This document shows, in pieces, positions 128 to 38,872 of a DNA stretch of 38,872 bases (position 1 is the first letter of the stretch; each line of letters opens with the position of its first letter). Origin of the DNA: a virus (taxonomy: Duplodnaviria; Caudoviricetes); IMG/VR virus record IMGVR_UViG_3300047272_000160, positions 1-38,872 of that record; one strand, given 5' to 3'. The notes under the pieces are model-generated. The model was not told the DNA's origin and ran no database searches. It saw nothing but the letters and a program-made list of their open reading frames with translations. A program made the position numbers and the translations under genes.

Positions 128-327
128 CTCTCCTTGTAGCGGTAGTTCACGCTCTCGTAGTTTGCTGTCTTAAGAATTGAACCAACCTCATCGGCGTGCT
201 CGTAGCGGTTAAAGGTTTTGATTTCACCCTCGTGATAGATGCGTAGCCCTGCGTCTACGCCGACCCCGTAAAGTCCTGCCGTAACTAGCAAGTCAAAGGT
301 GTCGTCCTGTAAAATAAATGCTGACAT
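1..327 (-). CDS. 5' part of a junction-spanning hypothetical early protein (about 159 aa, MSAFILQDDTFDLLVTAG...), continued at 38593-38872
   Basis: ATG at 327 preceded by AAAGGGG; in frame with MEGYRYSG of ORF 38593..38865. Confidence 0.8.
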   Translation of the reverse strand, partial: MSAFILQDDTFDLLVTAGLYGVGVDAGLRIYHEGEIKTFNRYEHADEVGSILKTANYESVNYRYKESTEMEGYRYSGEGITQYLGGVVIPWGQVLQSVRCYEYQSCEAP

Positions 328-360
328 GTTGTGCCCCTTTCGGCGTTGTTGTTGATGTCT

Positions 361-426
361 ATTTAATCGGAACCGTTGAACACTTGTCAAGCGGTTAGTG
401 GATATTTCTTTGTGACTTTTGTCACC
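361..426 (-). promoter_or_regulatory. Early promoter TTGACA-18-TTAAAT with upstream CRP-type box
   Basis: -35 at 385-390, -10 at 361-366; TGTGA-CTTTTG-TCACC at 411-426. Confidence 0.7.
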
Positions 427-443
427 GTGCCTGTCTTAAGTCC

Positions 444-653
444 TTAGAAGTGGTAAGCCCCTCTCAGAACTACCGTGCCCCAATGATTAGCGGGAACCTC
501 TATCGGCTTGATTACTTTCGGGGTCATCGTCACCTCGTACCCCTCCGCTATCTGCCAGTAGGCGTAAGCCTCCTCGTAATCGGTGAACACTTGCGTCACC
601 TCTGCTAAGTCGTTGCCGTCCTTATCGGTGGCGGTTACTGTCCATTGCATCAT
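444..653 (-). CDS. Hypothetical early protein
   Basis: 69-aa ORF, AAGGA RBS, tightly packed with neighbours. Confidence 0.75.
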   Translation of the reverse strand: MMQWTVTATDKDGNDLAEVTQVFTDYEEAYAYWQIAEGYEVTMTPKVIKPIEVPANHWGTVVLRGAYHF

Positions 654-664
654 GTCTTAAGTCC

Positions 665-853
665 TTATCTGTTCGCTTGTTCTAGTCGTGCAATCTCTGC
701 TAGCAATCGGGGAAGACCGCTAAAGAGTTCCCCCCAGTTGGCTACCTCGGTGCCGTCATTGTCCATATAGAAGACATCGTAAATCTCTGGCTCCAGTTCA
801 ACAATGCGGAGAAACTTTGTGCCCTCTGCGTAGTAGTAGTCGTGCGTTTTCAT
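665..853 (-). CDS. Hypothetical early protein
   Basis: 62-aa ORF, GGAGG upstream, operon packing. Confidence 0.75.
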   Translation of the reverse strand: MKTHDYYYAEGTKFLRIVELEPEIYDVFYMDNDGTEVANWGELFSGLPRLLAEIARLEQANR

Positions 854-856
854 GAC

Positions 857-1117
857 TTAAGACCTCCACTCCATAGCCTTGACATAATCCGCCTCCGAGA
901 TGTCCACCCCGTCAAGCCAGTAGGTGCACGCCACCCGTCTCCACCCGTCTCCGTCCTCTGGGTTATGGAGTGTTGTTATCTCGTAGCCGTAGCGGTCGTG
1001 ACAAGAACTGTCTTCCTCTATCCACTCGTAGCACTCGGCTAGCGTGTCCCGCCATGCCGTCCAACTTGCACCCCATACCTTGCGGTGCCGTGCCGTTACT
1101 TCGTATTTCGTTTTCAT
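857..1117 (-). CDS. Hypothetical early protein
   Basis: 86-aa ORF, AAAGGG RBS. Confidence 0.75.
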   Translation of the reverse strand: MKTKYEVTARHRKVWGASWTAWRDTLAECYEWIEEDSSCHDRYGYEITTLHNPEDGDGWRRVACTYWLDGVDISEADYVKAMEWRS

Positions 1118-1138
1118 TTTGTTTCCCTTTCTTAAGTC

Positions 1139-1160
1139 CTCCCCCTTGCGGGGGAGGGAC
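1139..1160 (-). other. Intergenic GC-rich hairpin with GCAA tetraloop (minus strand)
   Basis: ctccccc-GCAA-gggggag on the minus strand, between the SprT-like gene and the next gene. Confidence 0.5.
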
Positions 1161-1175
1161 TCCCTTTCTTTTTCC

Positions 1176-1943
1176 TTAGGCGACCGCTACGAAATCTTGC
1201 TCGCAGTCGGCGCAGATGACACCCTTTTCTAATGTCTTAAGACTTGCTCGGATAGTTGAACCGCACCCGCACTCGGCTTTCGTTAGGTTCTTGTTCCGTC
1301 CCTTAGGGGCAGAGGTGCCACCGAAGAACCCGCCGAAAGAGCCACCGAAAGCACCGCCACCAACGGGAGCACCCGAGACGACCGCAATAGCGTTTTCTAG
1401 TTTGGCGATACATTCCGCCCAACGCTCGGCGCACTCGTCTGATACCTCGGTATAACTCCACCCGATGGACTCGGAAACTTTCGTAATCGTCAAGCCGAAA
1501 GCACGCTCGGCAGTTGTCTTGAACTTCTTGTTATGTCGTCCGTTACTGTCCACATCTCGCACACCCGTTGCGATGTTCAAGGCGTGGGCGGTTTCGTGGG
1601 CGGTAGTTCCGAAGACTGCCCGAGCACCTCGGCGCAAGTTCTCGCCCGAAACCATAATTTCGTGAAAGCCTTTCTCTTCTGTCTTCGTTGGTGTCAATCC
1701 CATACTGACCGCCCAACCTGCGTAGGCGTAGTCCTCGTCCAATACCTCGTGCTCCTGTGCCCATGCGGGGCGTGTTGTGATGTGTCCCCATGCTCGGGCA
1801 TCTCGTTGAACCGTGAAGACTGCGGGCGGGAGTTGCACGCCCTCTGTCTTAAGCACCGACTCTGCGAGGATTTCGTAAACCTCGTGAAGAGCGGTGATGA
1901 CGGGGGCAAGTGTTGCCTCTGTCGTTGGTGCCAATGTGTCCAT
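1176..1943 (-). CDS. SprT-like zinc metalloprotease
   Basis: HETAH (HExxH) motif, downstream H..KF, C-terminal CxC...CxxC; Gly/Phe-rich linker. Confidence 0.8.
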   Translation of the reverse strand: MDTLAPTTEATLAPVITALHEVYEILAESVLKTEGVQLPPAVFTVQRDARAWGHITTRPAWAQEHEVLDEDYAYAGWAVSMGLTPTKTEEKGFHEIMVSGENLRRGARAVFGTTAHETAHALNIATGVRDVDSNGRHNKKFKTTAERAFGLTITKVSESIGWSYTEVSDECAERWAECIAKLENAIAVVSGAPVGGGAFGGSFGGFFGGTSAPKGRNKNLTKAECGCGSTIRASLKTLEKGVICADCEQDFVAVA

Positions 1944-1991
1944 GTTGTCCCCCTCGGAACTAAAGCGGGGCGGGAGTGCCTCGCCCCATTA

Positions 1992-2045
1992 AAGGTACAG
2001 GATTAAGACACGAACCGTGCAACATATTTAGTGACTTTTGTCACA
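1992..2045 (-). promoter_or_regulatory. Early promoter (weak TTGCAC-19-TACCTT) with CRP-type box
   Basis: AGTGA-CTTTTG-TCACA at 2030-2045, same core as 411-426; promoter hexamers less convincing. Confidence 0.55.
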
Positions 2046-2051
2046 CTCCAC

Positions 2052-2274
2052 AGTCCCCGACTGTTCCCCGTTCTATTTCGTCATGACGATAATTCTCGGT
2101 CGTACCCCCTTACGAGGGGGGTTACTCACGGGTAAAGCCCCTCTCCGTGGCTCTCGTGCCATTCCCACAATGTGGGATAAGGGGCAAGCCTTAAGACATG
2201 ATAGGACGACCTAACAATAAAAGATAGGGGAGCAAGAGTCCTTGACTGTTCGTGCAAGCAGTCCGTGACTGTTC
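2052..2274 (+). repeat. Three copies of AGTCCNNGACTGTTC
   Basis: Copies at 2052-2066, 2237-2251 and 2260-2274. Confidence 0.75.
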
Positions 2275-2367
2275 CCAACCGAGGAACGAGGGCGGGAGAC
2301 TGACCGAGACAAGAGGGAGAGAGGAGGAGAGAGGAGGCACCTAGGCGGTACTACTTGCGGGGCACAA

Positions 2368-2383
2368 TGTTTCACGGGAAACA
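2368..2383. promoter_or_regulatory. parS: parS-like ParB binding site
   Basis: TGTTTCACGGGAAACA matches consensus TGTTTCACGTGAAACA at 15/16; inverted repeat extends to AATG...CATT (2366-2385). Confidence 0.75.
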
Positions 2384-2774
2384 TTCCAACAGTCTAGGAA
2401 AGCGGTCTACTGTGTCCCTAGGGGTGGCTTGGTGGGTGGGGTGGGGTGCTCCCTACCTACTGGAAGGTAGTTGTAGCCCGCAACTAGTGAAGATAGTTGC
2501 ATGTGCAAGTAGTTTCTGTGGCTCCGACTGGGTGTCTGCCGAGGGCTCCCCCCTCTTATGCTATGAGTATTGAGACAGTTACGGACTCACTCTTTTTGTG
2601 GGTGGCTAGTTTGGTGTCACCCTTTGTGGTTGCCCATCACGCTGTGTGGTGTTATACGGTTTGGCTGACGGGATTGCTAGCCCCCGACTTAAGTGGCAGA
2701 GAAGAAAAAAAGAAAACCACCGACTTGGAAGTTTATCTCAATCTTTGTTGCACGCTTCTATGCAAACAACCGAT

Positions 2775-4580: not shown

Positions 4581-6543
4581 ACGGTCTGTCCCTGTTCAGG
4601 ACAAGGTGCAATTCTTTGCACTGATATCTGCTGGACGAACAATTAAAGACGCATGTGCCGAAACGGGCATCCACTACAACACAGGTAGTAGGTGGGTCAA
4701 ACGGGCTAAGGAACTAGAAGCCAACCGTAAAGAAGCCACCCACAAAGCCGCAACTGGCGCAGGCTCAGGTGGACGGCAGGCTTTGCAGCACATGAACTTC
4801 ATGGATGCCATTGACCTCCCATCGGCTATCCCCCATGACATGCTGGGCGAGAACGCATTACGAGGCTTAGAAGATTTTGACTTCTTCCGTACCCACTACC
4901 TTGGTCGTGTGCCATCTCCTTGGCAGGTAGAAGCAGCAGTTACCTTGGTTGAACTGTTGGAGTCCGAGGAGAAAGAGTTTGTCGTTATCAATGTGCCACC
5001 TGGTGCTGGTAAGTCAACCCTGTTCCACGATGTAGCGGTATGGGCGATTGTGCGTAACCGCCGAGTCCGTGTCATGATTGGTTCTGTTTCGCAGAACATG
5101 GCGAAGATGTACTCACGGCGTATCCGTGAAACTCTAGAACGAGTAGCCCCGATTGAACCCGACCCAGGTATGGTGCAAAAGGGATTAGCAGTAAATGCAG
5201 AAGGATGCTTAACGATTGACTATGGACGATTCAAACCAGTGGATAAGGGTGCCCTATGGCGGGCTGAAGAGTTCGTTGTTGAACAACTTGACGGAAACGG
5301 CTTGGATAACAAGGAGCCGACTGTCCGTGCATACGGCATTGAAGCGGAGTTTATCGGACACCGAGCCGACCTATGTCTCTTTGACGATGTTGCCTCACCT
5401 GACAATGCGAGAGAAAGCGTGGCTAGGGACAAACTTCTTGAACGATGGGACGGTGTGGCGGAAGCCCGCTGCGACCCAGGTGGGTTGCTGGCTGTTGTCG
5501 GGCAAAGACTCGGTTCGGGGGACCTTTACGCTCATTGTCTCGCCAAAGAAACCTACGATATTGAGGAAGATATCAATTACGATGGGGCAGATGTCATTAC
5601 CCCTGAAGATGTATCTGAAGGTGTACCAGTTCGCCAAAAGAAATACCGCCATATTATTTATAAGGCGTACTATGAGGAACTTGACACGGGCAAAGAATCT
5701 CGTTCTTTCAAGTCTGAGCCGTACCCCAAGGGACCGTTACTAGACCCGAAGCGTCTGCCCTGGAAAGACCTATCTTTTATTAGGTACAACAAACCCGATG
5801 TCTTCAAGGTTGTATACCAGCAAGAAGACTTGGACTTGGATTCCAAACTGGTACAGCGAACCTGGATTACAGGTGGCAAAGGGCTGGACGGAGTTGACTA
5901 CCCAGGGTGCGTAGACGCAGACCGTCAACCAGGTTACATCCCCGAAGGACTAGCCCACCCGTGGGTCAGCATCGTGGCAGTGGACCCATCCCCCACAATG
6001 TTTTGGGCGTTCGTATGGATTATCTACCAACCGAACACCAACCTCTACCATGTCGTAGACATTGAACGAGTCAAACTGACAGCCGAAGAAGTGCTGGGTT
6101 ATGACACCATGACTGGCGCATACTCAGGTCTGATGGACCAATGGCAACAACGCTCATATGATATGGGCTACCCCATCTCGCACTGGGTTGTAGAAATCAA
6201 CGCAGCCCAGCGATTCCTCCTAGCGCACGACTTTGTGCGTAAGTGGCAAGCAATGCACCGAGTCAATGTGATACCTCACACCACCAGCCGAAACAAACTG
6301 GACGAGACCCTCGGTGTGGAAGCACTCCTGCCGCCAGTCATCAGGTCTGGAGCATTGCGTCTCCCATCTATGAAAGGTAACTGGAAAACTCTCGCCGCCC
6401 AAGACGAGTTAACTAAGTGGGCAAGAGACAAGAAGCACGGCACCGACATCGTGATGGCACTATGGATGGCTTTGCTCAACCTGCCGAACCTAACCCAAAC
6501 CAAACCACCCCCACGGCAATGGCGACCATCCTGGCTTAAGTAA
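4570..6543 (+). CDS. terL: Terminase large subunit with N-terminal HTH extension
   Basis: Walker A PPGAGKST, Walker B LCLFDD, VVGQR motif, nuclease AVDPS / VEINAAQ / DIVMA; ATG 4570 preferred over TTG 4558. Confidence 0.92.
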   Translation: MGTKRSVPVQDKVQFFALISAGRTIKDACAETGIHYNTGSRWVKRAKELEANRKEATHKAATGAGSGGRQALQHMNFMDAIDLPSAIPHDMLGENALRGLEDFDFFRTHYLGRVPSPWQVEAAVTLVELLESEEKEFVVINVPPGAGKSTLFHDVAVWAIVRNRRVRVMIGSVSQNMAKMYSRRIRETLERVAPIEPDPGMVQKGLAVNAEGCLTIDYGRFKPVDKGALWRAEEFVVEQLDGNGLDNKEPTVRAYGIEAEFIGHRADLCLFDDVASPDNARESVARDKLLERWDGVAEARCDPGGLLAVVGQRLGSGDLYAHCLAKETYDIEEDINYDGADVITPEDVSEGVPVRQKKYRHIIYKAYYEELDTGKESRSFKSEPYPKGPLLDPKRLPWKDLSFIRYNKPDVFKVVYQQEDLDLDSKLVQRTWITGGKGLDGVDYPGCVDADRQPGYIPEGLAHPWVSIVAVDPSPTMFWAFVWIIYQPNTNLYHVVDIERVKLTAEEVLGYDTMTGAYSGLMDQWQQRSYDMGYPISHWVVEINAAQRFLLAHDFVRKWQAMHRVNVIPHTTSRNKLDETLGVEALLPPVIRSGALRLPSMKGNWKTLAAQDELTKWARDKKHGTDIVMALWMALLNLPNLTQTKPPPRQWRPSWLK

Positions 6544-6590
6544 GGGTAGTATGTTATCGTTATATCGTTTGAGTCTTGTAAAGGTCACGC

Positions 6591-8420
6591 ATGAAAACAG
6601 TTGAAGAAATAGTTGACCTCTACCGTCAAAGGTTAGAAGCACAAGGTCCTGTTCTCCAACAAATGCGTCAGGTCCGTCAACTCGCCAACGGTGATGTCGT
6701 TGTCCCATTGAACGAGTTGGACCGCAACACAAAGTCCTCTGTCGCTAACCTGCTCGTGCAAGGTTTAGACCAGATGTCTATGCGTGTATCTTCCACGATG
6801 CCTGCGCCGTACTTCCCAGCATTGCGAGAAGGTCAAGACCGTTCTATGCAACTGGCTCGTGACCGCAAGCGTGCAATGCTTGCCATCTGGGACCAGAACC
6901 GTATGAGCATGAAGATGCGCCGCCGTGCCCGTCACCTTCTTGCCTACAGCAACAGCCCCATCTACATCAAGCCTAACTTTGATAAGCGCATCCCAGAGTG
7001 GCAACTGCGTAACCCGCTTGATACCTTCCCTGCACCAATGGTGGACATTGACAACCCAGTCCCCCACGACTGCATCTTCTCCTACAGCCGTCCCTACGCA
7101 TGGCTCGCACAAAACTTCGGTGATGTCGTCAACGGACAACTTCGTGTCGGTAAGCCACAGCCCGATGACATGTTCACCATCCTTGAATATGTATGCGCAG
7201 ACGAAATCGTCATGCTTGTCATGGGATACGAACGAGACCGTGACCCACTCACAGGCGCATACTTCATGGGTTCAGCCTCTGTAGAACTTTCCCGCATCGT
7301 CAACCGCACAGGTATGCCACTGGTCATCGTTCCACAGCGCATCACACTTGACAAGCCACACGGACAGTTTGACGGTTTGCTCGGTATGTACTACACCCGT
7401 GCACGCCTTCAGGCTCTGACCGAAATCGCTATTGAGCGTGGCATCTTCCCTGACGAATACCTCGTTGCACGACCTGGCGAGAACCCAGAAATCATCCAAG
7501 TTGCAGACGGAAAGTCTGGACAGTTGGGTGTTGTCAAGGGCGGAGATATCCAAACCCACCAGTCAAACCCTGGCTACAAAACAGACACAGCACTTGACCG
7601 TCTTGAACGCCAAGAGCGTCTTGAAGGTGCAATCCCAGCAGAGTTCGGTGGAGAATCAGGCACCAACATCCGTACAGGTCGCCGTGGAGACAGCGTGCTC
7701 TCAGCAACAGTGGACTTCCGAGTGCAAGAAGCACAAGAAATCTTCGCTTCCTCAATGGTGGAAGAAGACAAGGTTGCTATCGCTATTGAAAAGGCATACT
7801 GGGGTTCAACCTCTAAGTCATTTTTCATGCCAGGTATGGGCGGTGGACTTAAGGACTACACACCAAACAAACTGTGGGAAACAGACTTCCACTATGTCGC
7901 ATACTCGGCATCAGGTGCAGATGTGAACAGTCTCATCGTGTCACTTGGTCAGCGTCTCGGTACAGGACTTATGTCAAAGGAATCTGCTCGTGAAGCAGAC
8001 CCACTTATCTCTGACCCAGAGTTGGAGAAGGACCGCATCGTGGCTGAAGGTATTGAAGCAGCGTTGTTGTCTTCAATTCAGGCACAAGCAGCCGACCCGA
8101 ACGGTCCATACCAGCCTGATGACCTCGCATATATTGCGTCACAGGTGCAATCAAACAAGATGTCCCTGCCTGAAGCAATCATGGCTGCACAAAAGCGTGC
8201 ACAAGAACGCCAAGCAGCGATGGCTCCAGCAGGTTCACCAGAAACAATGCCAGGACTGTCAGCACCAGGCATGGGGATGGAACAATCACCAGCAGGTCCA
8301 GCACCTGAAGGTATGGATGCGATGCTCGCCCAACTTGGTGGCGGTGGAGCAGGCGCAGCAGCCCAGCCACAGTCCCCAGGTGGTGTCTTAAGTCTTGCAA
8401 ATAGCCTTGGAGGGATGTAA
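6591..8420 (+). CDS. Portal protein
   Basis: 609 aa directly after terL, helical character, low-complexity C-terminal tail; assigned by position. Confidence 0.8.
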   Translation: MKTVEEIVDLYRQRLEAQGPVLQQMRQVRQLANGDVVVPLNELDRNTKSSVANLLVQGLDQMSMRVSSTMPAPYFPALREGQDRSMQLARDRKRAMLAIWDQNRMSMKMRRRARHLLAYSNSPIYIKPNFDKRIPEWQLRNPLDTFPAPMVDIDNPVPHDCIFSYSRPYAWLAQNFGDVVNGQLRVGKPQPDDMFTILEYVCADEIVMLVMGYERDRDPLTGAYFMGSASVELSRIVNRTGMPLVIVPQRITLDKPHGQFDGLLGMYYTRARLQALTEIAIERGIFPDEYLVARPGENPEIIQVADGKSGQLGVVKGGDIQTHQSNPGYKTDTALDRLERQERLEGAIPAEFGGESGTNIRTGRRGDSVLSATVDFRVQEAQEIFASSMVEEDKVAIAIEKAYWGSTSKSFFMPGMGGGLKDYTPNKLWETDFHYVAYSASGADVNSLIVSLGQRLGTGLMSKESAREADPLISDPELEKDRIVAEGIEAALLSSIQAQAADPNGPYQPDDLAYIASQVQSNKMSLPEAIMAAQKRAQERQAAMAPAGSPETMPGLSAPGMGMEQSPAGPAPEGMDAMLAQLGGGGAGAAAQPQSPGGVLSLANSLGGM

Positions 8421-30185: not shown

Positions 30186-30874
30186 TGGAAGCAACACACA
30201 AAGAGGTAGGGCTTAAAGATGTCCTCGTTACCTACGGCGTGCCCGACCCACGCATCGTTGGCAAACTGCCCAAGGGTGGTATCCAACTTGACTTCGTTGG
30301 TCATGCCGATGTCACCAAGATGCTCATTGAGATTGACCCATGTTGGTCATGGGAACCAGTAGCGTTTGACACTGACGGTCTCCCTGCATACCGCATTGAG
30401 AATGGCATGGCACACATGGCTGGATGGCTCACAGTGCACGGGGTACGCCGTCTTGGTATTGGTTCGGTCGCACACAACAAGCCTGACTTACTGAAGGAAC
30501 TCTGCTCAGACTTCATTCGTAACTCTGCTATGCGTTTCGGTATCTGCCTCAGCCTATGGACGAAGCAGGAATGGGACGACATCCCAACACCATCGCTTCA
30601 AGCGAAGCAAGCAGAGTCAAAGACTCAGCCATACCCACAGCAGAAGTCAAAGCCAGTGCAAGAAAGCGCACCGTCTAAGAAGCCACGCACCTTGACCCCG
30701 CTATCGCCTGAACAGGTGGAACAGTTTGTCAAGGCTTGCGCCGATAAGGGCATTGACCCCAAAGTCGTAGCGTCTAACGCCGAAATCCCTGAGGGTCAGC
30801 AGTGGATGGAGTCCCACCTCCCCTCATTGCGTAAAGCATTTAAGGAACTCGTAGCATTTAAGGAAGGTCAGTGA
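30185..30874 (+). CDS. Rad52/Sak-like single-strand annealing protein
   Basis: LDFVGHADVT, WSWE, SDFIRNSAMRFGI; paired with the exonuclease. Confidence 0.75.
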   Translation: MEATHKEVGLKDVLVTYGVPDPRIVGKLPKGGIQLDFVGHADVTKMLIEIDPCWSWEPVAFDTDGLPAYRIENGMAHMAGWLTVHGVRRLGIGSVAHNKPDLLKELCSDFIRNSAMRFGICLSLWTKQEWDDIPTPSLQAKQAESKTQPYPQQKSKPVQESAPSKKPRTLTPLSPEQVEQFVKACADKGIDPKVVASNAEIPEGQQWMESHLPSLRKAFKELVAFKEGQ

Positions 30875-31056
30875 TGGCTAACAAGCGCACAGTAGACCCG
30901 ACCGCAAGTGAAGCATCGGCTCACATCATCGGCTTGCGTGTCACCAAGACACAGTTGGAACAGATTGCTTTCTTATGTCAGGCAAAGAATGTCAAGCGTT
31001 CGCAGTTGTTCCGTGACCTTGTACGCAACGCCATTGAACAGGAGTTGGCTAAGTAA
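30874..31056 (+). CDS. Ribbon-helix-helix DNA-binding protein
   Basis: IIGLRV strand followed by two helices, RSQLFRDLV. Confidence 0.7.
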   Translation: MANKRTVDPTASEASAHIIGLRVTKTQLEQIAFLCQAKNVKRSQLFRDLVRNAIEQELAK

Positions 31057-31232
31057 TGGCGATGAACTACAACTCCAACAGGTACCGCCAGCCCAGCGCA
31101 CACACTCGTTTGACTGAATCGTATGAGGCTCATGCTCGTACACAGGACAAACTTGATAAAGCCTTAAGTCAGATTAAACATCTTGAGGCTGAGGTTGCAC
31201 GGTTGGAACGAGAGTTGGCTAACCGTGGCTGA
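31056..31232 (+). CDS. Small coiled-coil protein (58 aa)
   Basis: Manual translation ending ...IKHLEAEVARLERELANRG; TAATG coupling. Confidence 0.65.
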   Translation: MAMNYNSNRYRQPSAHTRLTESYEAHARTQDKLDKALSQIKHLEAEVARLERELANRG

Positions 31233-31443
31233 TGACATTGTGACCCGACTACGGGAACACGCCAATGGAGACTTTGAAAAAACTTCCGAGTTCATGCTTG
31301 GTCTTGCAGCCGATGAGATTGAACGCCTGCGCAAACTTGTAGGTCAATCATTTACGCAAGTCATTTTTGATGAAGTGTATGAAGGAGATTTGGAAACTGC
31401 CAATGCTGAGTGGGACAAACTAAAAGAGAAGCGCAATGGCTAG
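31225..31443 (+). CDS. Hypothetical protein (DIVTRLR...AADEIERLR type)
   Basis: GTG start within ORF 31183..31443. Confidence 0.7.
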   Translation: MADDIVTRLREHANGDFEKTSEFMLGLAADEIERLRKLVGQSFTQVIFDEVYEGDLETANAEWDKLKEKRNG

Positions 31444-31654
31444 ATACGAGGACTTGCTTGACGAGATGGAGGAGAGGAACAAACTCCTCACACTCAAACT
31501 CAAGCGTGCCAAAGAAGATGCTAGGCAATGGCGTATGGTCGCCAACGCTTTAGCCCATGCACTAGCACTTCAGAAGCAGAAGAAGCAACCGCTGTGGGTA
31601 CACGAGTATTACCGCAAGTGGGAGAACAAGAACAAGGAATGGTGGGGTGTCTGA
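31436..31654 (+). CDS. Hypothetical protein
   Basis: 72 aa, overlapping operon arrangement. Confidence 0.7.
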   Translation: MARYEDLLDEMEERNKLLTLKLKRAKEDARQWRMVANALAHALALQKQKKQPLWVHEYYRKWENKNKEWWGV

Positions 31655-31964
31655 CCAGTGGATTCATGGTCGCTCTACATACCTCAAATACAAATGCCGT
31701 TGCGACATCTGTGTTCAGGACGCAAGACAGTACCGTGAAACATATATACCCCCAGGTATCAGACTTAAGCCAGAACCTTTAATCCAACGCTTAACTTCTG
31801 ATGGTCGCACATCACCCATCACCAATAGACAACTGAACAAGTGGTTAAGGATTGGGCTTGACTTGTACACGGCAGATAGATGGGCTGTCAAACTGGGGTA
31901 TCACCCCTACGAAATATGGGGCGATGACTTCTATCAAGGATGTGAGGATTATGTCCAAGGCTAA
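31647..31964 (+). CDS. Zn-finger plus HTH-like DNA-binding protein
   Basis: HG...Y...CRCDIC, then ADRWAVKLGYHPYEIW. Confidence 0.65.
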   Translation: MSDQWIHGRSTYLKYKCRCDICVQDARQYRETYIPPGIRLKPEPLIQRLTSDGRTSPITNRQLNKWLRIGLDLYTADRWAVKLGYHPYEIWGDDFYQGCEDYVQG

Positions 31965-32286
31965 ACAAAAAGGAACATCGGCTGAGACCGCCGTAGTTAA
32001 TTGGCTTAAGTCAGAAGGTTGGATATATGCAGAACGCCGTGCATTGCAAGGCAATCTTGACAAAGGCGATATCAACATGGGTGCGCCTGTTGTCATTGAG
32101 GTAAAAAACTGCAAGACCATCACACTGTCTGAATGGCTGAAGGAACTGAAGGTTGAGATGGCTAACGCTGAGGTTGAGGTTGGTGCTGTGATTGCTAAGA
32201 AGCGTGGCACCATGCAGGTCGGTGACTGGTACGCCGTCATGCCAGCCTCGGTGTTTGCCTTCTTACTTAAGGAAGCAGGGTACTGA
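31951..32286 (+). CDS. Holliday junction resolvase-like PD-(D/E)xK nuclease
   Basis: MSKAKQKGTSAE, DKGDI, IEVKN; ATG 31951. Confidence 0.8.
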   Translation: MSKAKQKGTSAETAVVNWLKSEGWIYAERRALQGNLDKGDINMGAPVVIEVKNCKTITLSEWLKELKVEMANAEVEVGAVIAKKRGTMQVGDWYAVMPASVFAFLLKEAGY

Positions 32287-32459
32287 TGAAAGAGTTTTAC
32301 CTAAAGACAGAAATCCCCGTTGAGTGGGGAGAAACAATCAAGGATGAGATTGTCAAAGACATGAAGAAGAAACTTCCTGACAACTCCACTATCAGATACG
32401 AGGGTTACATGGCGATGGGTAGCAACGACTTTGTAATCATCTACACGGTAGGTGAATGA
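32286..32459 (+). CDS. Hypothetical protein (57 aa)
   Basis: Manual translation MKEFYLKTEIPVEWG...; coupled at both ends. Confidence 0.65.
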   Translation: MKEFYLKTEIPVEWGETIKDEIVKDMKKKLPDNSTIRYEGYMAMGSNDFVIIYTVGE

Positions 32460-32872
32460 TGGAGGTCGGAGGCTACAACCCACAGTTTGACTTCAAGGCT
32501 GACCTAGCGTATGGTCATGAAGGCGAACAGAACCTCATTGACTTCTTCAATGCGTTCAACAACGGAGCAGTGGAGGTTAAGGCTGACCGCTACCGCAACG
32601 GACGCATGGCAGTAGAGACAGAGCAACGCCCGAAGGGTGGAGAGTGGAAGCCATCAGGAATAAATGTGACTAAGGCAGAGTGGTGGGCATACAGATTTGC
32701 ACCTGACTCCTACGCACTTGTCTCGGTCGCACGGTTAAAGAACTTCCTGCGTATCAACTACTCATGGTTAGAGAAGCGAGACTTCGCTAGCAACTCTGAC
32801 AACCCAGCACGGGGTTTCTTGTTGCAACCCAGCCATGTGCTGGAGTTACAGACCAACGAAGACTACGACTGA
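32459..32872 (+). CDS. PD-(D/E)xK-like nuclease-fold phage protein
   Basis: DLAYGHEGE, VEVKADR, SGINVTKAEWW. Confidence 0.65.
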   Translation: MEVGGYNPQFDFKADLAYGHEGEQNLIDFFNAFNNGAVEVKADRYRNGRMAVETEQRPKGGEWKPSGINVTKAEWWAYRFAPDSYALVSVARLKNFLRINYSWLEKRDFASNSDNPARGFLLQPSHVLELQTNEDYD

Positions 32873-32953
32873 TAAACTCGTCTAATCCGTTTAACACTTA
32901 AGACAGGAGACCTATGGAACCTACTTGACCCGTCCCCTTAAGAAAGGAAACCA

Positions 32954-33343
32954 ATGCTGAAACGCATAATAATCTCAACAATCGCCCTATCCCTACTAGC
33001 AACACCTCCAGTGGCGGAGGCTAAGACCAGCCACACCTGCCCCCGTTACGAGGCTCAACTCCGTAAGCACGGTCTGCCCGTAAAAGAGTTCTCTTACATC
33101 ATGTGGCGTGAGTCCCGATGCAACCCCAAGGCGGTCTCATCGCAAAACGGTGACGGCTCCTATGACTATGGCGCACTGCAAATCAACAGCAGTTGGCGAA
33201 CAGTCACAGCACAGGTATGCCAACGCCCTTACAACCAAGTCAAAAAGTCCCTACTTAAACTGGACTGCAATCTTAGGGTCGCCCGCTATTTATATAAGAA
33301 CGGAGGATTAGGGCATTGGCGTATCACCAGCGGGACTCAATGA
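32954..33343 (+). CDS. Secreted lysozyme-like lytic transglycosylase (SLT domain)
   Basis: Signal peptide (AEA), RESRCNP catalytic Glu, DYGALQIN. Confidence 0.85.
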   Translation: MLKRIIISTIALSLLATPPVAEAKTSHTCPRYEAQLRKHGLPVKEFSYIMWRESRCNPKAVSSQNGDGSYDYGALQINSSWRTVTAQVCQRPYNQVKKSLLKLDCNLRVARYLYKNGGLGHWRITSGTQ

Positions 33344-33381
33344 TATTGCTAGGGTAATACTGTACGCATAGGGAGAAACCT

Positions 33382-33804
33382 GTGGACGCAGTGACATACA
33401 AAAGTAGCCAACGCTTCTGGAGCAAAGTAGCCATCGGCACCCCCGACCAATGTTGGGAGTGGCAAGGCTCCCGCCGAGGCGACAGTTACGGTCAGTTGTA
33501 TATCAACAAGAAACACAGAGCAGCCCACCGCTTCTCGTTCTTCATGGCGAACTACTACTACCCACCTGTCGTAAGACATAAGTGTGACAACAGAGTATGC
33601 GTAAACCCCCACCATCTAGAAGGTGGGACGCAGACCGAGAATATGAGAGATGTCGTAGAAAGAGGGAGACACTTCTTTGCAAACAAAACCCACTGCCCAC
33701 AGGGTCATGAGTACAACCAAGAGAACACCTACACCCGACCCAAAGGAAGCCGAGAATGTCGGGCATGTAGAAAAGAACGAAAGAACAAGATGGTCTTGCA
33801 ATAG
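33382..33804 (+). CDS. HNH endonuclease with C-terminal zinc-binding domain
   Basis: CWEWQG, AHR, VRHKCDNRVCVNPHHL...N, KTHCPQGHEY...CRAC. Confidence 0.9.
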   Translation: MDAVTYKSSQRFWSKVAIGTPDQCWEWQGSRRGDSYGQLYINKKHRAAHRFSFFMANYYYPPVVRHKCDNRVCVNPHHLEGGTQTENMRDVVERGRHFFANKTHCPQGHEYNQENTYTRPKGSRECRACRKERKNKMVLQ

Positions 33805-33922
33805 TTGTAAGACATCTGTAACATTGTTTGTCGCAGTTAAATATGCGCCAACACACACCTGCCCTAAGAAAGCAGGACGGGTAACACCATTAGAGAAAGA
33901 AGAAGTGGAACCAAATGAGTAA
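33677..33922 (+). CDS. Small Cys/His protein, start uncertain
   Basis: CNSC...HTC in the C-terminal half; overlaps HNH and abuts ssb. Confidence 0.4.
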   Translation: MQTKPTAHRVMSTTKRTPTPDPKEAENVGHVEKNERTRWSCNSCKTSVTLFVAVKYAPTHTCPKKAGRVTPLEKEEVEPNE

Positions 33923-34319
33923 TCAAATCACAGTCAATGGCAAGGTCGGGCAAGAGCCTGAACTGCGCTACTCCGCAGGCGGAATGGCAATCCTCACCTT
34001 CTCTGTCGCAGACACATACGGCAAGGACGACAAGAAGAAGACAACATGGCACAACATCACGGTGTTCTCCAAGTTGGCAGAGAATGTTGCTAGCACCATC
34101 TCTAAGGGTTCAACAGTCATCGTTGTTGGACGCTACGAGCAGGACGAGTTCACCAAGAAAGACGGCACCAAGGGCAAGAGCCTGAAGTTAATCGCTGATG
34201 AGGTCGGCGTGTCCTGTCGCTGGGACATTTGGGTCAAGGACTCAACCGAGCAGACAATGGCACAGATTGGAAAGGTCTTCCCATCCATGTCGCCAGTCAC
34301 TGAAGACGAGTTCTTCTAA
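33915..34319 (+). CDS. ssb: Single-stranded DNA-binding protein
   Basis: GKVGQEPELRY, FSVA, TTWHNITVF, KGSTVIVVGR, acidic-aromatic tail EDEFF. Confidence 0.92.
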   Translation: MSNQITVNGKVGQEPELRYSAGGMAILTFSVADTYGKDDKKKTTWHNITVFSKLAENVASTISKGSTVIVVGRYEQDEFTKKDGTKGKSLKLIADEVGVSCRWDIWVKDSTEQTMAQIGKVFPSMSPVTEDEFF

Positions 34320-35134
34320 TGAGCGAATACCCGCTGAGGGTCTTGTCGTTGGGGGCAGGGGTGCAATCAACAACCCTGCTCCTAATGATGTTGCATGGGG
34401 AAATCCCAATGGCAGACCATGTAATCTTCGCTGATACAGGATGGGAACCTAAGAAGGTGTACGAACACCTTGAATGGCTTAAGACCTTGATGGACAAAGC
34501 AAACATCCCTTTCCATATCGTGAGCAAAGGAAACATCCGAGAGGATTTCCTGACCGAAGGAAAGCGTTACGCCTCCATGCCATTACACATGGTCGGAGAA
34601 GATGGCAAGAAAGGTATGGTTCGCCGTCAATGCACAGCCGAATACAAACTTGCCCCACTCATGAAGAAGCAACGAGAACTAGCAGGTCTTAAGTCAGGGC
34701 AACGCTGCAAAGAACACCGCATTACCACCATCATTGGTATCTCATGGGATGAAGTGCAGCGCATCAAAGACCCACAGTTCTCATGGATTGAACACGAGTA
34801 CCCACTTGTAGACCGCAAGATATCCCGACAGGATTGTCTTGACTGGTGCGCTGATAAAGGCTACGCCCTCCCGCCACGGTCGGCATGTATCGGTTGCCCA
34901 TTCAAGAACGCTGATGAATGGCGTGCCTTAAGTGAGATGCCTGAAGAATGGGCTGACGCAGTGGAGTTTGACGAGGCGTTACGCACAGTGCCACACCTCA
35001 TTGAACGCTACCGTGGTACCCCATACCTACACTCAAGCCGTGTTGAACTACGCAATGTGGACTTAAGAACGGACGCAGAACGAGGGATTGTTTCCTTGTT
35101 TGACCAAGAGTGCGAAGGAATGTGCGGGCTATGA
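34319..35134 (+). CDS. PP-loop (adenine nucleotide alpha-hydrolase; PAPS reductase/DndC-like) enzyme
   Basis: SLGAGVQS, FADTGWE, RQCT..YK, IGISWDE, YPL, SACIGCPF, C-terminal CEGMC. Confidence 0.8.
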   Translation: MSEYPLRVLSLGAGVQSTTLLLMMLHGEIPMADHVIFADTGWEPKKVYEHLEWLKTLMDKANIPFHIVSKGNIREDFLTEGKRYASMPLHMVGEDGKKGMVRRQCTAEYKLAPLMKKQRELAGLKSGQRCKEHRITTIIGISWDEVQRIKDPQFSWIEHEYPLVDRKISRQDCLDWCADKGYALPPRSACIGCPFKNADEWRALSEMPEEWADAVEFDEALRTVPHLIERYRGTPYLHSSRVELRNVDLRTDAERGIVSLFDQECEGMCGL

Positions 35135-35391
35135 GCGACCCATTAGAAATGCCATTTGATGTATGGATGGAGATTGGCTTAAGACAGGGGTTCTGCACAC
35201 CACCAGTGTGCGAGACCCACGATGGGCTACCCACCACACCTGACGAAGATGAAGCGTTTGAGAACGGAGACGACCCATGTATTCATGTCTTACGCCTGTA
35301 TGCCAGCCCTCAAGAGAAAGCCGATTGTGAAGAGAACCACTCGCCAACGGTCTACCGCAACCCCTTCCCCGAACTTAGAGCCTTATCCTGA
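35131..35391 (+). CDS. Hypothetical protein (C.THDG.P...DPC.H motif)
   Basis: ATGA coupling with the previous gene; Cys/His motif. Confidence 0.7.
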   Translation: MSDPLEMPFDVWMEIGLRQGFCTPPVCETHDGLPTTPDEDEAFENGDDPCIHVLRLYASPQEKADCEENHSPTVYRNPFPELRALS

Positions 35392-35524
35392 CCAACGACA
35401 GTGCGACCACTGCGGAACTATCGCTCGTGCTATCACCATCTGGGAACCGCATGAGATAGCAGGCTGTGGTTGTGCCTGCCATTGGGCTAGAAGATACGAC
35501 TCAAGAAACAAGAAGAAGAAGTGA
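35222..35524 (+). CDS. Small Cys-rich protein, start uncertain
   Basis: CDHC...CGCACH near the 3' end; GTGA coupling to whiB. Confidence 0.4.
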   Translation: MGYPPHLTKMKRLRTETTHVFMSYACMPALKRKPIVKRTTRQRSTATPSPNLEPYPDQRQCDHCGTIARAITIWEPHEIAGCGCACHWARRYDSRNKKKK

Positions 35525-35796
35525 AGCACTGGAGCGACCAAGCAAACTGCAAAGGAATGGACTCCGACATCTTCTTCCCTGAAACATTCGGTGACCAACA
35601 GAACGGAATGATATGGGCACAGGCAAAGGTCATCTGTGCTGACTGCCCTGTCAAACTTGACTGCCTTAAGTCAGAACTAGAACACGAAGCAATCAGCGGT
35701 CGGCGCAATGGGGTATGGGGTGGGCTAACCCCAAAGGAACGAGACCAGTATGTTCGTATGAACAAGCCCCTCATCGTACAAATGAAGAAGCCCTAG
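35521..35796 (+). CDS. whiB: WhiB family Fe-S transcription factor
   Basis: Four Cys (ANC...CADC...C), IFFP, GVWGGLTPKER. Confidence 0.93.
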   Translation: MKHWSDQANCKGMDSDIFFPETFGDQQNGMIWAQAKVICADCPVKLDCLKSELEHEAISGRRNGVWGGLTPKERDQYVRMNKPLIVQMKKP

Positions 35797-35826
35797 CCAC
35801 TGGGAAGGGGAACCAGCGACTAGGGC
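35790..35826. terminator. Hairpin at the convergence of rightward and leftward transcription
   Basis: GCCCTAG/CTAGGGC and CTGG/CCAG stems around a GAAGGGGAA loop; no strong T-tract. Confidence 0.5.
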
Positions 35827-35845
35827 AAACCTCAGTGTATCAGAT

Positions 35846-36139
35846 TTAGATACTTATCTTGCAGATTGTGTAGCGGTATTTCCATGCGACCTCACAACTC
35901 TCCATCTCACGGCGAGCCACCTCCTCGGAGGGGAACACAGAAGCCCTGCTCTGTGTCTTAGTCCACTTCCACACCTCGTCCCTATCCCAACGGAAGAACT
36001 TGACAGAGTTACCCATCATCTCTTGCGCCACAATCCACCCGTGGTCGGGCTTGATGTAGTTGTCGTAAGGCTTGCGTTCTTTAAGACTTATCTTCTCGCC
36101 AAGGATTACCTGTCGTAAGACACGATGTAACGCTTTCAT
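35846..36139 (-). CDS. Hypothetical early protein
   Basis: 97 aa, TAATG coupling. Confidence 0.7.
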   Translation of the reverse strand: MKALHRVLRQVILGEKISLKERKPYDNYIKPDHGWIVAQEMMGNSVKFFRWDRDEVWKWTKTQSRASVFPSEEVARREMESCEVAWKYRYTICKISI

Positions 36140-36336: not shown

Positions 36337-36674
36337 AGTCCTTGCTCCTTCAGCCAGCGGTTAAGCCCTGTCTGCCAGCATGTGAACGCCATGGCAAACG
36401 GTACGAGCGACCCAAGAATGTTGTAGTCCATCGTGTAGCACCCTGCGATAAAGAACCCGAAGCCAAGGAAAGCACGAGACTTAAGCCCCGACCTAAGCAT
36501 GGGTCGTCCTGCTCGGAAGTTCACCATGTTGGTGCGCTCACGGATTGTGAGTGGTTCGCACTCGGCGCACAGGTTGTAATCCCGTACTGGTGGTAGGTCG
36601 GTGTTCCAACAGCGGTAGCACACTCGGTTGTCTTGCCAATGCCTAACGGCGGGGTGGTTGGGTGAGAAGTTCAT
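36333..36674 (-). CDS. Zn-finger plus two-TM membrane protein
   Basis: CYRC...CAEC followed by hydrophobic segments. Confidence 0.7.
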   Translation of the reverse strand: MNFSPNHPAVRHWQDNRVCYRCWNTDLPPVRDYNLCAECEPLTIRERTNMVNFRAGRPMLRSGLKSRAFLGFGFFIAGCYTMDYNILGSLVPFAMAFTCWQTGLNRWLKEQGL

Positions 36675-36898
36675 GACTTAAGTCCTTCGTTTAGTTGCTT
36701 GATTGCTTTAGTGATTTGTTCGGTCAGTTGCTCGGCTTGAGGGTAGAACTCCCCGTCACCTGAGTAGTCAAGATGCCACAGCATTTCCTCCATGTCAAGG
36801 ATTGTCCCGTTAGGAAACATTGCCGCTTCTGCTTCTGCGTCCAACTCCCACTCGTTGCGGTCGGTGTTGTACGAGATGATGTAGTGGTGGATAGCCAT
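36671..36898 (-). CDS. Acidic hypothetical early protein
   Basis: 75 aa, AAAGGGG RBS. Confidence 0.75.
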   Translation of the reverse strand: MAIHHYIISYNTDRNEWELDAEAEAAMFPNGTILDMEEMLWHLDYSGDGEFYPQAEQLTEQITKAIKQLNEGLKS

Positions 36899-36901
36899 GT
36901 C

Positions 36902-37165
36902 TTAAGCCCCTTTCTGCCTTTGGAAAACTGTCTTGTATGTGTCGGTGTTGGTGGTCATGTAACCAGTCCCATCGTCAGCCAACGGGTACACAGTCACGGT
37001 CATCTGCCCATCACATGAGTAGAGATTGAGGTCGTAACCATCGTGTGAGTTCCACTCGTCATGCTCTTGGTCTTGGTGGTGCCACTTCGGGTGCTTCACC
37101 ATGAACGCTAACGCCCATGCTTTGCCGAACCTTTCCACGCTCTTGGGTACTTGTAGTTCTTTCAT
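36902..37165 (-). CDS. Hypothetical early protein
   Basis: 87 aa, operon packing. Confidence 0.75.
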   Translation of the reverse strand: MKELQVPKSVERFGKAWALAFMVKHPKWHHQDQEHDEWNSHDGYDLNLYSCDGQMTVTVYPLADDGTGYMTTNTDTYKTVFQRQKGA

Positions 37166-37168
37166 GTC

Positions 37169-37447
37169 TTAAGCCTCGCTCCCGTTGGTCGCTTCATAGA
37201 TTGCTTCGTCAAGTGTTTCGTTGCCGACCTCGCAAAGAACATTGTCAAGAGTCTTGCGCCACCATGTCGTGAACTTGACTGCTTCAACCATTCCTTCCAT
37301 GTGCTCTTCTGCGATGTCGTCATCTGCTAAACGCTGGCGGATATCTTCATCGGTGAAAATGCACCCGACCCAACCAAACTTCCCGCACATACGGTGGAAC
37401 AGTTGGATTGCCTCCTGCTCCTGCATTTCTTCTAGTTGCTTATTCAT
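37169..37447 (-). CDS. Acidic hypothetical early protein
   Basis: 92 aa, GAAGGGG RBS. Confidence 0.75.
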   Translation of the reverse strand: MNKQLEEMQEQEAIQLFHRMCGKFGWVGCIFTDEDIRQRLADDDIAEEHMEGMVEAVKFTTWWRKTLDNVLCEVGNETLDEAIYEATNGSEA

Positions 37448-37483
37448 TTTGTTTGCCCCCTTCTAGGACTTGTTGTTGTTAGT

Positions 37484-37549
37484 AGTTAATCAAACCGTTT
37501 GACATTTGTCAAGGGTATTCGGACAATTCTTTTTGTGACCTGTGTCACA
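37484..37549 (-). promoter_or_regulatory. Early promoter TTGACA-17-TTAACT with perfect CRP-type box
   Basis: -35 at 37507-37512, -10 at 37484-37489; TGTGA-CCTGTG-TCACA at 37534-37549. Confidence 0.8.
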
Positions 37550-37703
37550 CATTCAGACTTAAGTCAGGAACCTTCACACGCTCAATCTGCACATCGTCAT
37601 ACCCATCGTTGATGAATACCAGCGCAGTCTCAACCGCTTCATTCCATGTGGAATGGAAGTCATTAACTTCCACGCCACCGACCCAAACTACATACTTAGC
37701 CAT
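37545..37703 (-). CDS. Hypothetical early protein (52 aa)
   Basis: Manual translation MAKYVVWVGGVEVND...GYDDVQIE; absent from ORF track. Confidence 0.7.
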   Translation of the reverse strand: MAKYVVWVGGVEVNDFHSTWNEAVETALVFINDGYDDVQIERVKVPDLSLNV

Positions 37704-37705
37704 GA

Positions 37706-38281
37706 CTATGCCCCCACTTCTACGAGTGCTGACTTAAGAACCGTAATCATTCGGTGCATTGCCTCTTCGTTAAAGGCAACTGTTACTTTATGCCACGATG
37801 CGCCGACCTCATCATCGTTCGGCAAAATACCAGCGCACACCAACGCATTAGCGAAAGAGTCACGCAAGTCATGCAAGCGGTTAGCCTCTGCTTCATTCTC
37901 TGCCCGTGCACGCTCACGGTTCTCGTGATAAGTAATGAAGTCAGCGAGCAATTCTTTTGCGGTCTTCTCTGACTTAATGATTAACCGAGTTGGCATTGAC
38001 TTGATGTCGCCGTACTTAAGAAAGGAACGCTCTGCGATTGAGCGGGTATCCACTACGGGCTTACCTTCCTCATCTTTAACGGTCGCTCCGTTCTCGTCTC
38101 GCACATAATAGGAGGCGGTTGGGTTCACATCTTTGATACGGACACATGACTTATCGTAGGAAGTTCCTACAACTTGGAAGTAGGTGGGGTACTCGCTGTA
38201 CTTACCCGCCTCTGCATTAGCGTTCTTGAAGACCGCCTCAGGATTGTTAAGGATTATCTCTAGGATATCTTGACGCTTCAT
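37706..38281 (-). CDS. Hypothetical early protein
   Basis: 191 aa, GAAGGGGG RBS. Confidence 0.8.
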   Translation of the reverse strand: MKRQDILEIILNNPEAVFKNANAEAGKYSEYPTYFQVVGTSYDKSCVRIKDVNPTASYYVRDENGATVKDEEGKPVVDTRSIAERSFLKYGDIKSMPTRLIIKSEKTAKELLADFITYHENRERARAENEAEANRLHDLRDSFANALVCAGILPNDDEVGASWHKVTVAFNEEAMHRMITVLKSALVEVGA

Positions 38282-38389
38282 TGTGTTGCCCCCTTCAGGA
38301 CTTTGCTACTGCTCGGCACTTTGCCTCGCATGGTGGGCGGATAGGACTTGCACCTATCTGTCGGCTGGTCGCCCCGTTGATGTGTCTCT

Positions 38390-38444
38390 AGTTAATCAAC
38401 TGTCTAACGCTATGTCAAGTCAATCTTCTGTGGCGTTTGTCACA
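38390..38444 (-). promoter_or_regulatory. Early promoter TTGACA-17-TTAACT with CRP-type box
   Basis: -35 at 38413-38418, -10 at 38390-38395; TGTGG-CGTTTG-TCACA at 38429-38444. Confidence 0.75.
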
Positions 38445-38596
38445 CCCCCTGCCTTAAGACTTGCTAGTTCTTTCTCGGTCTTCAGAATGTTGAGCCGCAA
38501 GTCGTGAGCCATTTGAGTACGGCTACCGAACAAGTCCACCTCCACCTCTAGCCCTGCCTTAAGACTCTCAAGGTACTGCTCCAGTTCCTCTCTCAT
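38420..38596 (-). CDS. Hypothetical early protein (58 aa)
   Basis: Manual translation MREELEQYLESLKAG...SLKAGGVTNATED; ATGA coupling. Confidence 0.65.
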   Translation of the reverse strand: MREELEQYLESLKAGLEVEVDLFGSRTQMAHDLRLNILKTEKELASLKAGGVTNATED

Positions 38597-38872
38597 GACT
38601 TAAGTCCTTCCTTAATTGCGGTCTTGATATCTTCGGCGTGAAACCGTGTCCACTCCCACTCGGCGTTGTCCGCCTGCGCAATCTTGCCGCATACCTTGCG
38701 AGTGATTGCCTCGCAGATAGCCTTAGCGAGCGACCCGTTCCAAGTTGGTGCCTCGCATGACTGGTACTCGTAGCACCGCACCGACTGCAACACCTGCCCC
38801 CAAGGGATAACCACTCCGCCGAGGTACTGAGTAATTCCCTCCCCGCTGTAGCGGTAGCCCTCCATCTCGGTG
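38593..38872 (-). CDS. 3' part of the junction-spanning hypothetical protein (starts at 327)
   Basis: In frame through the terminal repeat; YEYQSCE motif. Confidence 0.8.
   Translation of the reverse strand, partial: TEMEGYRYSGEGITQYLGGVVIPWGQVLQSVRCYEYQSCEAPTWNGSLAKAICEAITRKVCGKIAQADNAEWEWTRFHAEDIKTAIKEGLKS
38746..38872. repeat. Terminal direct repeat, right copy
   Basis: Identical to 1-127. Confidence 0.95.

Follow-up and report, generated by a model that had tools for sequence, protein, structure and literature searches.

The analysis concerns the 38,872 nucleotides of the IMG/VR record IMGVR_UViG_3300047272_000160 (Caudoviricetes), referred to here as the window, which holds the circular and complete 38,745-bp genome of a phage plus a 127-base assembly overlap (classified as 100% complete on direct terminal repeats). 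This genome iterates the palindrome CTTAAG, and we find that CTTAAG is the core of a longer, selected element that tracks one phage gene, the first of the early operon, which encodes a SprT-like zinc metalloprotease bearing a zinc ribbon at its C-terminus (Table 1). Judged from comparative sequence patterns, the 14-bp element is very probably the site to which the phage's own SprT-like protein binds directly, and the ribbon is likely the part that reads it. That the sites serve to silence genes, as stoperators do, is a proposal that we hold at even strength.

CTTAAG occurs 50 times in the window, against 9.9 copies expected from an order-2 Markov model and 16.7 from an order-3 model, and it ranks first of all 4096 hexamers under order-1 and order-2 models. 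A preliminary description of this DNA had counted about 50 copies against roughly 9, and the positions it gave were all correct (19 early, 12 in 31163-35670 and 19 structural). It regarded amino-acid demand as no explanation, and the coding excess survives codon control: 35 copies lie in genes where synonymous-codon shuffling gives 12.4 ± 3.0 (maximum 21 in 500 shuffles; one short open reading frame (ORF), which was mis-bounded in this procedure, contains no CTTAAG). The coding excess is present in early, middle and late genes alike, with 14 copies against a shuffled 5.6 ± 2.1 in genes of the late region, and the density falls from 3.3 per kb in the early part to 1.8 in the middle and 0.7 in the late part. 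Leu-Lys pairs are spelled CTT AAG in 26 of 59 cases window-wide and in 10 of 13 in early genes. The copies had been described as lying in different reading frames and in intergenic DNA, but the frame variety is smaller than implied: of the 35 coding sites, 26 fall in the Leu-Lys frame. Eleven of the 50 lie within 20 nt before a start codon, and seven sites, six of them early, stand exactly 2 nt ahead of an ATG (the early sites at 36677, 36901, 37168 and 38599 are 2 nt before a start codon). The 19 early sites, two of which lie within the SprT gene and one just past its end, are spaced more evenly than random (mean gap 275 bp, coefficient of variation 0.51, P 0.001).

The CTTAAG signal is real and selected, in agreement with the cis-signal proposed earlier. 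Relatives are bimodal for the hexamer, with 26–53 copies in four near-complete genomes and 0–3 in ten others. Aligned window sites are kept at 16 of 26, 16 of 24 and 17 of 27 positions in the motif-bearing relatives G001, G002 and G004, where the background over all aligned hexamers is 0.26–0.37; G003 keeps 10 of 24 against a background of 0.23, and the motif-free G006–G008 keep 0/8, 0/20 and 0/20 (0/48 in all). Seven sites of G001 also lie 2 nt before ATG, and no comparable element was found in the early genes of motif-free relatives. A pattern scan brought out a second phage family, CTTAAG-rich and with a terminase 22–28% identical to that of the window, which shares with the window little beyond WhiB and one early gene, the SprT-like protease.

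The flanks of the hexamer are informative. A bias toward a 10-bp palindrome had been noticed and is borne out: 68 of 100 half-sites have G at −2, and 25 of the 50 window sites take the GNCTTAAGNC form. The element nevertheless extends beyond 10 bp, and a single base change in its TTAA core is tolerated. Across 215 sites from five genomes the flanks read T-C-M-T-G-W ahead of the core and are mirrored on the other side, so that CTTAAG forms the core of the 14-bp pseudo-palindrome CTGWC-TTAN-GWCAG. Relatives that purge TTAA retain the element with one base altered (CTGTC-TTA[C/T/G]-GWCAG, up to 66% GC), with the core forms CTTACG, CTTATG and CTTAGG; such one-base variants occur on both strands, and four are present in the window. 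The two W flanks vary independently, being complementary at 80 sites and not complementary at 99, and the element is therefore not a hairpin, which rules out an RNA or DNA hairpin signal. Its profile suggests recognition by a symmetric protein that binds double-stranded DNA.

Which gene goes with the motif was resolved by comparing loci. In a first comparison, in which overlapping loci were not merged, loci fetched by the SprT protein proved mostly motif-rich: at least three copies of GWCTTANGWC are found in 168 of the 186 SprT-carrying loci, which together have 1478 copies against 62 expected. Restricting the count to the 102 loci that run from WhiB to terminase gives at least three copies in each of the 62 with SprT, which come from both families, and 0–1 in 33 of the 40 without it. 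As a control, the second family was re-fetched by terminase alone, which gave 80 loci, 26 of them spanning the early region. Twelve of the 26 carry the window's SprT type and have 16–31 CTTAAG upstream of terminase; the 14 others have 0–5 CTTAAG and no GWCTTANGWC there, and both halves show much the same avoided tetramers. In orthologous middle genes of this family, 42 sites are found in 32.2 kb with SprT versus 9 in 36.1 kb without, and late DNA has almost no extra sites. SprT status requires four changes on the terminase tree, each forced by well-supported branches, and three to four on two middle-gene trees; whole-module recombination may lower the number of truly independent changes. A gene-content comparison of 61 loci, in sets picked by SprT status, gives 32/32 versus 0/29 for the SprT cluster and a score of 0.34 for the next best.

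The partner had previously been sought in a host factor or an unannotated phage protein, and it is the phage protein that is favoured, in that the SprT-like gene tracks the motif. The three candidates then named, WhiB, the RHH protein (30874) and the 31647 protein, have homologues in motif-free genomes too. These, together with the HNH protein, the Vut_1 pair and the PAPS-reductase-like protein, were rejected as present in motif-free or absent from motif-rich genomes, and a 58-aa protein at 38420 follows the motif in the first family only. The motif follows neither a DNA-modifying enzyme nor a restriction-avoidance signature. The shared tetramer purge of motif-rich loci first suggested that the motif is a host effect, and this was dropped when SprT-carrying and SprT-free phages were found to avoid the same tetramers and loci with other signatures proved motif-rich.

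A second specificity is seen where the window's SprT type is replaced. The 14 second-family loci without it have their first-gene slot filled by another SprT-like gene, whose zinc-ribbon tail is related, and iterate GTTTAAAC, of which they have 20–39 copies upstream of terminase versus about 0.5 expected. The two words separate cleanly in larger sets: 80 GTTTAAAC-type loci have 1795 GTTTAAAC and one GWCTTANGWC in 793 kb, and 145 window-type loci have 34 GTTTAAAC and 2098 CTTAAG in 1.56 Mb, the window itself having zero GTTTAAAC. By SprT subtype, the words are GWCTTANGWC versus GTNTAAAC. Three of the 80 loci lack GTTTAAAC, and the two longer ones of these have 44 GTCTAAAC. In the seven aligned GTTTAAAC-type proteins from lakes, the HExxH motif is lost and the dense arrays are kept. 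Beside the protease-dead GTTTAAAC-type gene, all 14 second-family loci have an amidoligase_2 and glutamine amidotransferase pair, and one locus with three GTTTAAAC has a short ORF resembling the zinc-ribbon tail alone, without the protease domain (Table 1).

The second SprT type is also present in 16 cultured phages with recorded hosts in Actinobacteria, Cyanobacteria and Proteobacteria (six of these records were scanned minus their last few kb). All 11 with a KQ[ST]TR arm are enriched for GT[T/G]TAAAC, three of them weakly (4–6 copies). GTTTAAAC is counted 16 times in Pan1, 17 in R5C, six in the E. coli phage Bas97 and four each in Persinger and Mano, and GTGTAAAC 13–41 times in Zeta1847, IAmGroot, JackieB, Emotion, Phives (an AZ phage of Arthrobacter) and 4A. 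The five phages with other tails (Celaena, Dismas, Vitas, FP1 and Psa21) have 0–1 copies, and the first three show a mild excess of GCGATCGC. The iterated word thus follows the zinc-ribbon sequence among these 16 phages. Several GTTTAAAC in Pan1 (L508–L511) lie at the centre of longer inverted repeats, about 4.7 kb apart.

The SprT-like protein matches the family phrog_6361 (E 5e-36) and, weakly, PF10263 (19.2 bits, below the cut-off of 25.6). Its domain order is a zincin domain, a flexible Gly-rich linker, a basic arm and a four-cysteine ribbon, and its model has a pLDDT of 87.6, falling under 50 in the linker. The top solved-structure match of the model is SPRTN (6mdx; Z 9.0, rmsd 3.1, 105 aligned), and Wss1 (5xbn) is matched at Z 7.1; a Foldseek search of the PDB returned nothing at E 0.001 or better, and PADLOC gave no match. 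In the ribbon, the four cysteines, N219, R232 and S234 are invariant in aligned homologues, and the ribbon sequence co-varies with the iterated word. A fold search with a low-confidence single-sequence model of the ribbon gave matches of Z 2.6 or less, and an Atlas search with it gave sub-threshold leads only. Type II hammerhead ribozymes (Rfam RF02276, 42–46 bits, above the gathering score) lie in the leader just before SprT in four of five relatives tested; Rfam has no match in the window, hammerhead ribozymes included.

In the explanation that we favour, the SprT-like protein would be made first, as the product of the first early gene, and would sit as a dimer, as the symmetry of the site suggests, on one site per 250–300 bp of early DNA and more sparsely elsewhere. 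Among the occupied sites would be those at gene junctions and beside early promoters, and the bound protein would be a repressor or transcription roadblock that damps early and middle genes. Early transcription would then be turned down, for lytic-cycle timing or for a quiet carrier state, and the intact protease domain could provide a release switch by self-cleavage, one not required for selection on the sites. The highest site density is in early genes, which supports silencing, and the protease-dead proteins beside dense arrays count for it as well. The functions listed in the preliminary description included a silencing-protein site, which we favour, and a modification mark, a self-mark and a recombination site, for which our tests gave no support.

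The position of sites relative to promoters bears on this explanation. In 13 of 16 second-family loci a site lies 24–43 bp ahead of the SprT start, which is an autoregulatory position and a trait of regulators, and in the window an imperfect site with one perfect half falls in the spacer of a putative SprT promoter, which was read by eye and is uncertain. At three early promoters the nearest CTTAAG starts 40–51 bp ahead of the −35 hexamer. Early promoters also have GTGA-N6-TCAC boxes, which we take to be CRP-like, about 20 bp upstream of the −35, and one of these boxes has CTTAAG directly upstream (Table 1). Such boxes are present in 15/16 and 14/16 SprT-carrying loci of the two families, and as single copies in 4/15 and 4/14 loci without SprT; because the box co-occurs with the SprT module, host regulators are probably used at the early promoters. 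The idea that the boxes are strong copies of the CTTAAG-type site is weakened by the finding of TGTGAC-N4-GTCAC in 0/16 second-family loci. In the available part of their account, cluster AZ phages have no identified repressor, and an AZ phage with an N-truncated SprT forms clear plaques while its near-twin forms turbid ones (10.1101/2025.05.26.655371).

Several observations weigh against the proposed binding or its silencing purpose. Seven early-spanning loci (five contigs) have the motif yet no SprT. In three of them (L002, L014 and L212) the sites lie mainly in middle genes and are thin or decayed in the early block, remnants that fit loss of the SprT gene, but L242 retains a full early array without it. 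Six distant homologues of the window's SprT come without a GWCTTANGWC-type motif, and the pairing is therefore strong, not universal. Among the carriers of distant homologues, phiAsp2 (L480, NC_005885) has 30 TGAC-N8-GTCA genome-wide, many overlapping TTGACA boxes, three actinobacterial plasmids (L477, L478 and L479) have 2–7 each, and neither this word nor the window's motif is found in an Iamia plasmid or in an Enterocloster phage region. Of 35 homologues of the window's type that were aligned, 34 have kept HExxH. No CTTAAG overlaps the −35 or −10 of the three clear early promoters in the window, and among the 28 further loci examined, a site at most 170 bp before the SprT match is seen in only seven. 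Sites are evenly spread genome-wide in several cultured phages (Phives, JackieB and Pan1), a distribution that suits a protective or structural coat equally well. The clear-plaque AZ phage differs from its near-twin by three further changes (10.1101/2025.05.26.655371), and with no integrase among the 57 window proteins scanned, the carrier state is a conjecture.

In an unlikely rival explanation, the same protein at the same sites would be a DNA-addressed protease that cuts host proteins landing on phage DNA. Restriction enzymes, silencers or cross-linked proteins would be its targets, and the densest cover would lie at the first-expressed or first-entering end. The fold is nearest to SPRTN and Wss1, described in the sources available as DNA-activated proteases, the HExxH is intact as noted, and spacing is more even than random in nine of 16 site sets tested (P under 0.05). 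First-family genomes without SprT have instead a GT4 glycosyltransferase (9/10 versus 0/5) or a predicted methyltransferase and leave most tetramers unpurged, which looks like an alternative defence strategy. However, the lake GTTTAAAC-type proteins without HExxH go with the densest arrays, a first early gene works only after entry unless its product is packaged, and the site at the gene's own transcription start is what a regulator would have. A broader version, which we consider similarly doubtful, is that phages of several phyla each carry a private address word, repeated at intervals of a few hundred to a few thousand bases, and park on their own DNA a SPRTN-like protease with a swappable zinc ribbon, which would clear or cut host proteins. 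If true, the protease would be addressed by sequence and would exist in at least two specificities, possibly four (GWCTTANGWC, GTNTAAAC, perhaps TGAC-N8-GTCA and GCGATCGC), and the ribbon would be a new programmable module of 40 residues for reading DNA.

It is improbable that the role is purely architectural, with evenly spaced binding that organises, partitions or protects the genome during recombination-dependent replication or packaging and regulates no genes. The even genome-wide spacing in Pan1, R5C, Phives and JackieB would be accounted for, family scans recognised no polymerase, helicase or integrase among the 57 window proteins, and a parS-like palindrome is present; the nearly five-fold early-to-late gradient in the window and the few extra late sites in the second family speak against it. 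Slightly less probable again is that a host protein, either a repressor or a nucleoid protein, binds the sites and, so lured, is cut by the SprT-like protease. The CRP-like box does co-occur with the SprT module, but the word changes with the phage zinc ribbon under the same restriction signature, and GTTTAAAC recurs in phages recorded from three phyla. We find it very hard to accept that the sites are joints for early cassette shuffling or a favoured translation-start context: seven sites lie 2 nt before ATG in the window and as many in G001, but 35 of 50 sites are within genes and survive codon control, the early genes of motif-free relatives lack a comparable element, and the link to SprT type would be left unexplained. 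Least credible of all is a self-mark made by a DNA-modifying enzyme, for which the window offers a Vut_1 transporter, its neighbour gene and a PAPS-reductase/SspD-like gene, none of which occurs in the five further motif-rich records compared (two incomplete), and to which the graded flanks and tolerated core change are foreign, an enzyme's site being fixed.

Known iterated elements help to place the array. Cyanobacterial HIP1 is a highly iterated short palindrome, frame-independent, chromosome-wide and tied to host methyltransferases, whereas the window's motif varies in density along the genome and goes with a phage gene. The stoperators of Cluster A mycobacteriophages (L5, Bxb1) are described as 13-bp sites, oriented with transcription and read by a known immunity repressor (PMC6550527). 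As far as that account extends, the window's array resembles them in its dozens of genome-wide copies mostly off promoters (50, of which 35 in genes), in a consensus that changes with the phage protein and, putatively, in blocking transcription. It differs in a symmetric site found on both strands, in a partner that would be a SprT-like protease with a zinc ribbon, and in that lysogeny is only conjectured here; no match to an L5 gp71-type repressor family was found among the 57 window proteins. By analogy, the array appears to work like a stoperator array without being a member of that class. The protein has in common with SPRTN and Wss1 the fold, the HExxH and, C-terminal to the protease, a small zinc domain. 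In the material available, those enzymes are said to respond to DNA structure, which activates them, and to cut cross-linked proteins whatever the sequence, and that material gives them no sequence-specific address.

Among phages, a mycobacteriophage SprT is reported to resemble SPRTN (PMC12363180), and the SprT-like protease of AZ/EB/EH actinophages is reported to have, by prediction, a DNA-binding domain at the C-terminus, and to be a candidate in lysogeny control (10.1101/2025.05.26.655371). The latter proteases are relatives of the GTTTAAAC-type protein, the window's being another subtype with another word, and the available part of that account names no binding site for them. Cluster K phages, which also have a SprT-related gene, carry the repeated SAS/ESAS elements just before the starts of small genes, with a function given as unknown (PMC3203893; PMC11373665). 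SAS is described as 13 bp, asymmetric and Shine-Dalgarno-like at starts, whereas the window's sites are symmetric and mostly in genes, and the accessible parts of these accounts draw no link between SAS and SprT (PMC3203893; PMC11373665). No description of the motif–SprT pairing was found in the literature searched, whose coverage was incomplete, so that its absence from print is not established.

The late genes recognised in the window are terminase, portal, major head and tail, the middle block has a RecE-like exonuclease, an annealing protein, RusA, HNH, SSB and WhiB, and the early block consists of small genes on the reverse strand. WhiB points to an actinobacterial host, to judge from the accessible part of a published account (10.64898/2026.02.18.706586). 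A genome scan for the host gave only two phage-like contigs, both in one bin of an unrelated phylum, and no cultured phage matched 8 kb of the window's structural DNA. The window has zero ACGT, AGCT, CCGG, CGCG, GATC, GGCC, TCGA and CGACG, as would be expected from restriction avoidance. Neither the Vut_1 transporter with the adjoining phrog_15826, a pair that we take to resemble a 7-deazaguanine DNA-modification module, nor the PAPS-reductase-like gene (PADLOC SspD match, E 1e-12) is found in any of the 15 relatives compared. The palindrome in the non-coding stretch that separates early from late genes is parS-like by the consensus that we assume for parS; no ParB gene was recognised in the window beside it, and it could recruit host ParB. 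The GT4 glycosyltransferase (PF20706, with homologues in G006–G015) is found in nine of ten motif-free and none of five motif-rich genomes; tetramer sites are left unpurged in most genomes that have it, and it may serve in DNA protection.

Table 1. Positions of the features discussed (window coordinates unless a locus is named)
Feature	Position	Strand	Remark
SprT-like zinc metalloprotease gene, 255 aa	1176..1943	−	First gene of early operon
HExxH zinc-binding motif (HETAH), residues 116-120	1584..1598	−	From aligned homologues
Basic arm and four-cysteine zinc ribbon, residues about 213-251	1191..1307	−	Putative DNA-reading domain
Early array, part 1	36480..38604		CTTAAG at 36480, 36677, 36901, 37168, 37558, 37733, 38015, 38453, 38558, 38599
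Early array, part 2	169..2693		Across circular junction; 169, 435, 656, 856, 1131, 1236, 1848, 2190, 2688
Middle sites	31163..35670		12 CTTAAG in recombination, replication-aid and WhiB genes
Late sites	6535..28721		19 CTTAAG in packaging, structural and lysis region
Site of the window's type, sequence forms			CTGWCTTAAGWCAG; CTGTCTTAAGACAG
One-base variants of 10-bp core, GWCTTA[C/T]GWC	7966..36121		Four, starting at 7966, 27373, 33568, 36112
Sigma-70-like early promoter, TTGACA...TTAACT	37481..37512	−	Similar promoters start at 38418 and 390
Imperfect site, one half perfect	2000..2010	−	Spacer of putative SprT promoter
GTGA-N6-TCAC box (CRP-like)	411..426, 2031-2044, 37535-37548, 38429-38444		Last one imperfect; CTTAAG directly upstream of first
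Hammerhead ribozymes	L305:3689-3753, L290:6057-6118, L280:7923-7987, L297:7917-7979		
Amidoligase_2 and glutamine amidotransferase pair	L433:6772-7620, L428:7763-8617		
ORF resembling ribbon tail	L449:751-963		
Vut_1 transporter and phrog_15826	3440-4580		
PAPS-reductase-like gene	34319-35134		
parS-like palindrome	2372-2385		Also L169:1051
GT4 glycosyltransferase	L175:11579-12532		

SprT-like genes are common in phages and have been annotated only by likeness to human SPRTN; they now have a candidate DNA target. Through this window a second specificity comes to light, and with it a natural exchange inside one phage family, cleanly either/or, in which two SprT subtypes occupy the same slot, each with its own word. 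The pairing explains why a six-base palindrome piles up in a genome purged of seven four-base palindromes. It also makes the SprT-like protein a candidate for the repressor still missing in cluster AZ phages, and a 40-residue ribbon whose arm predicts an 8–14-bp target would be a new small DNA-reading module.

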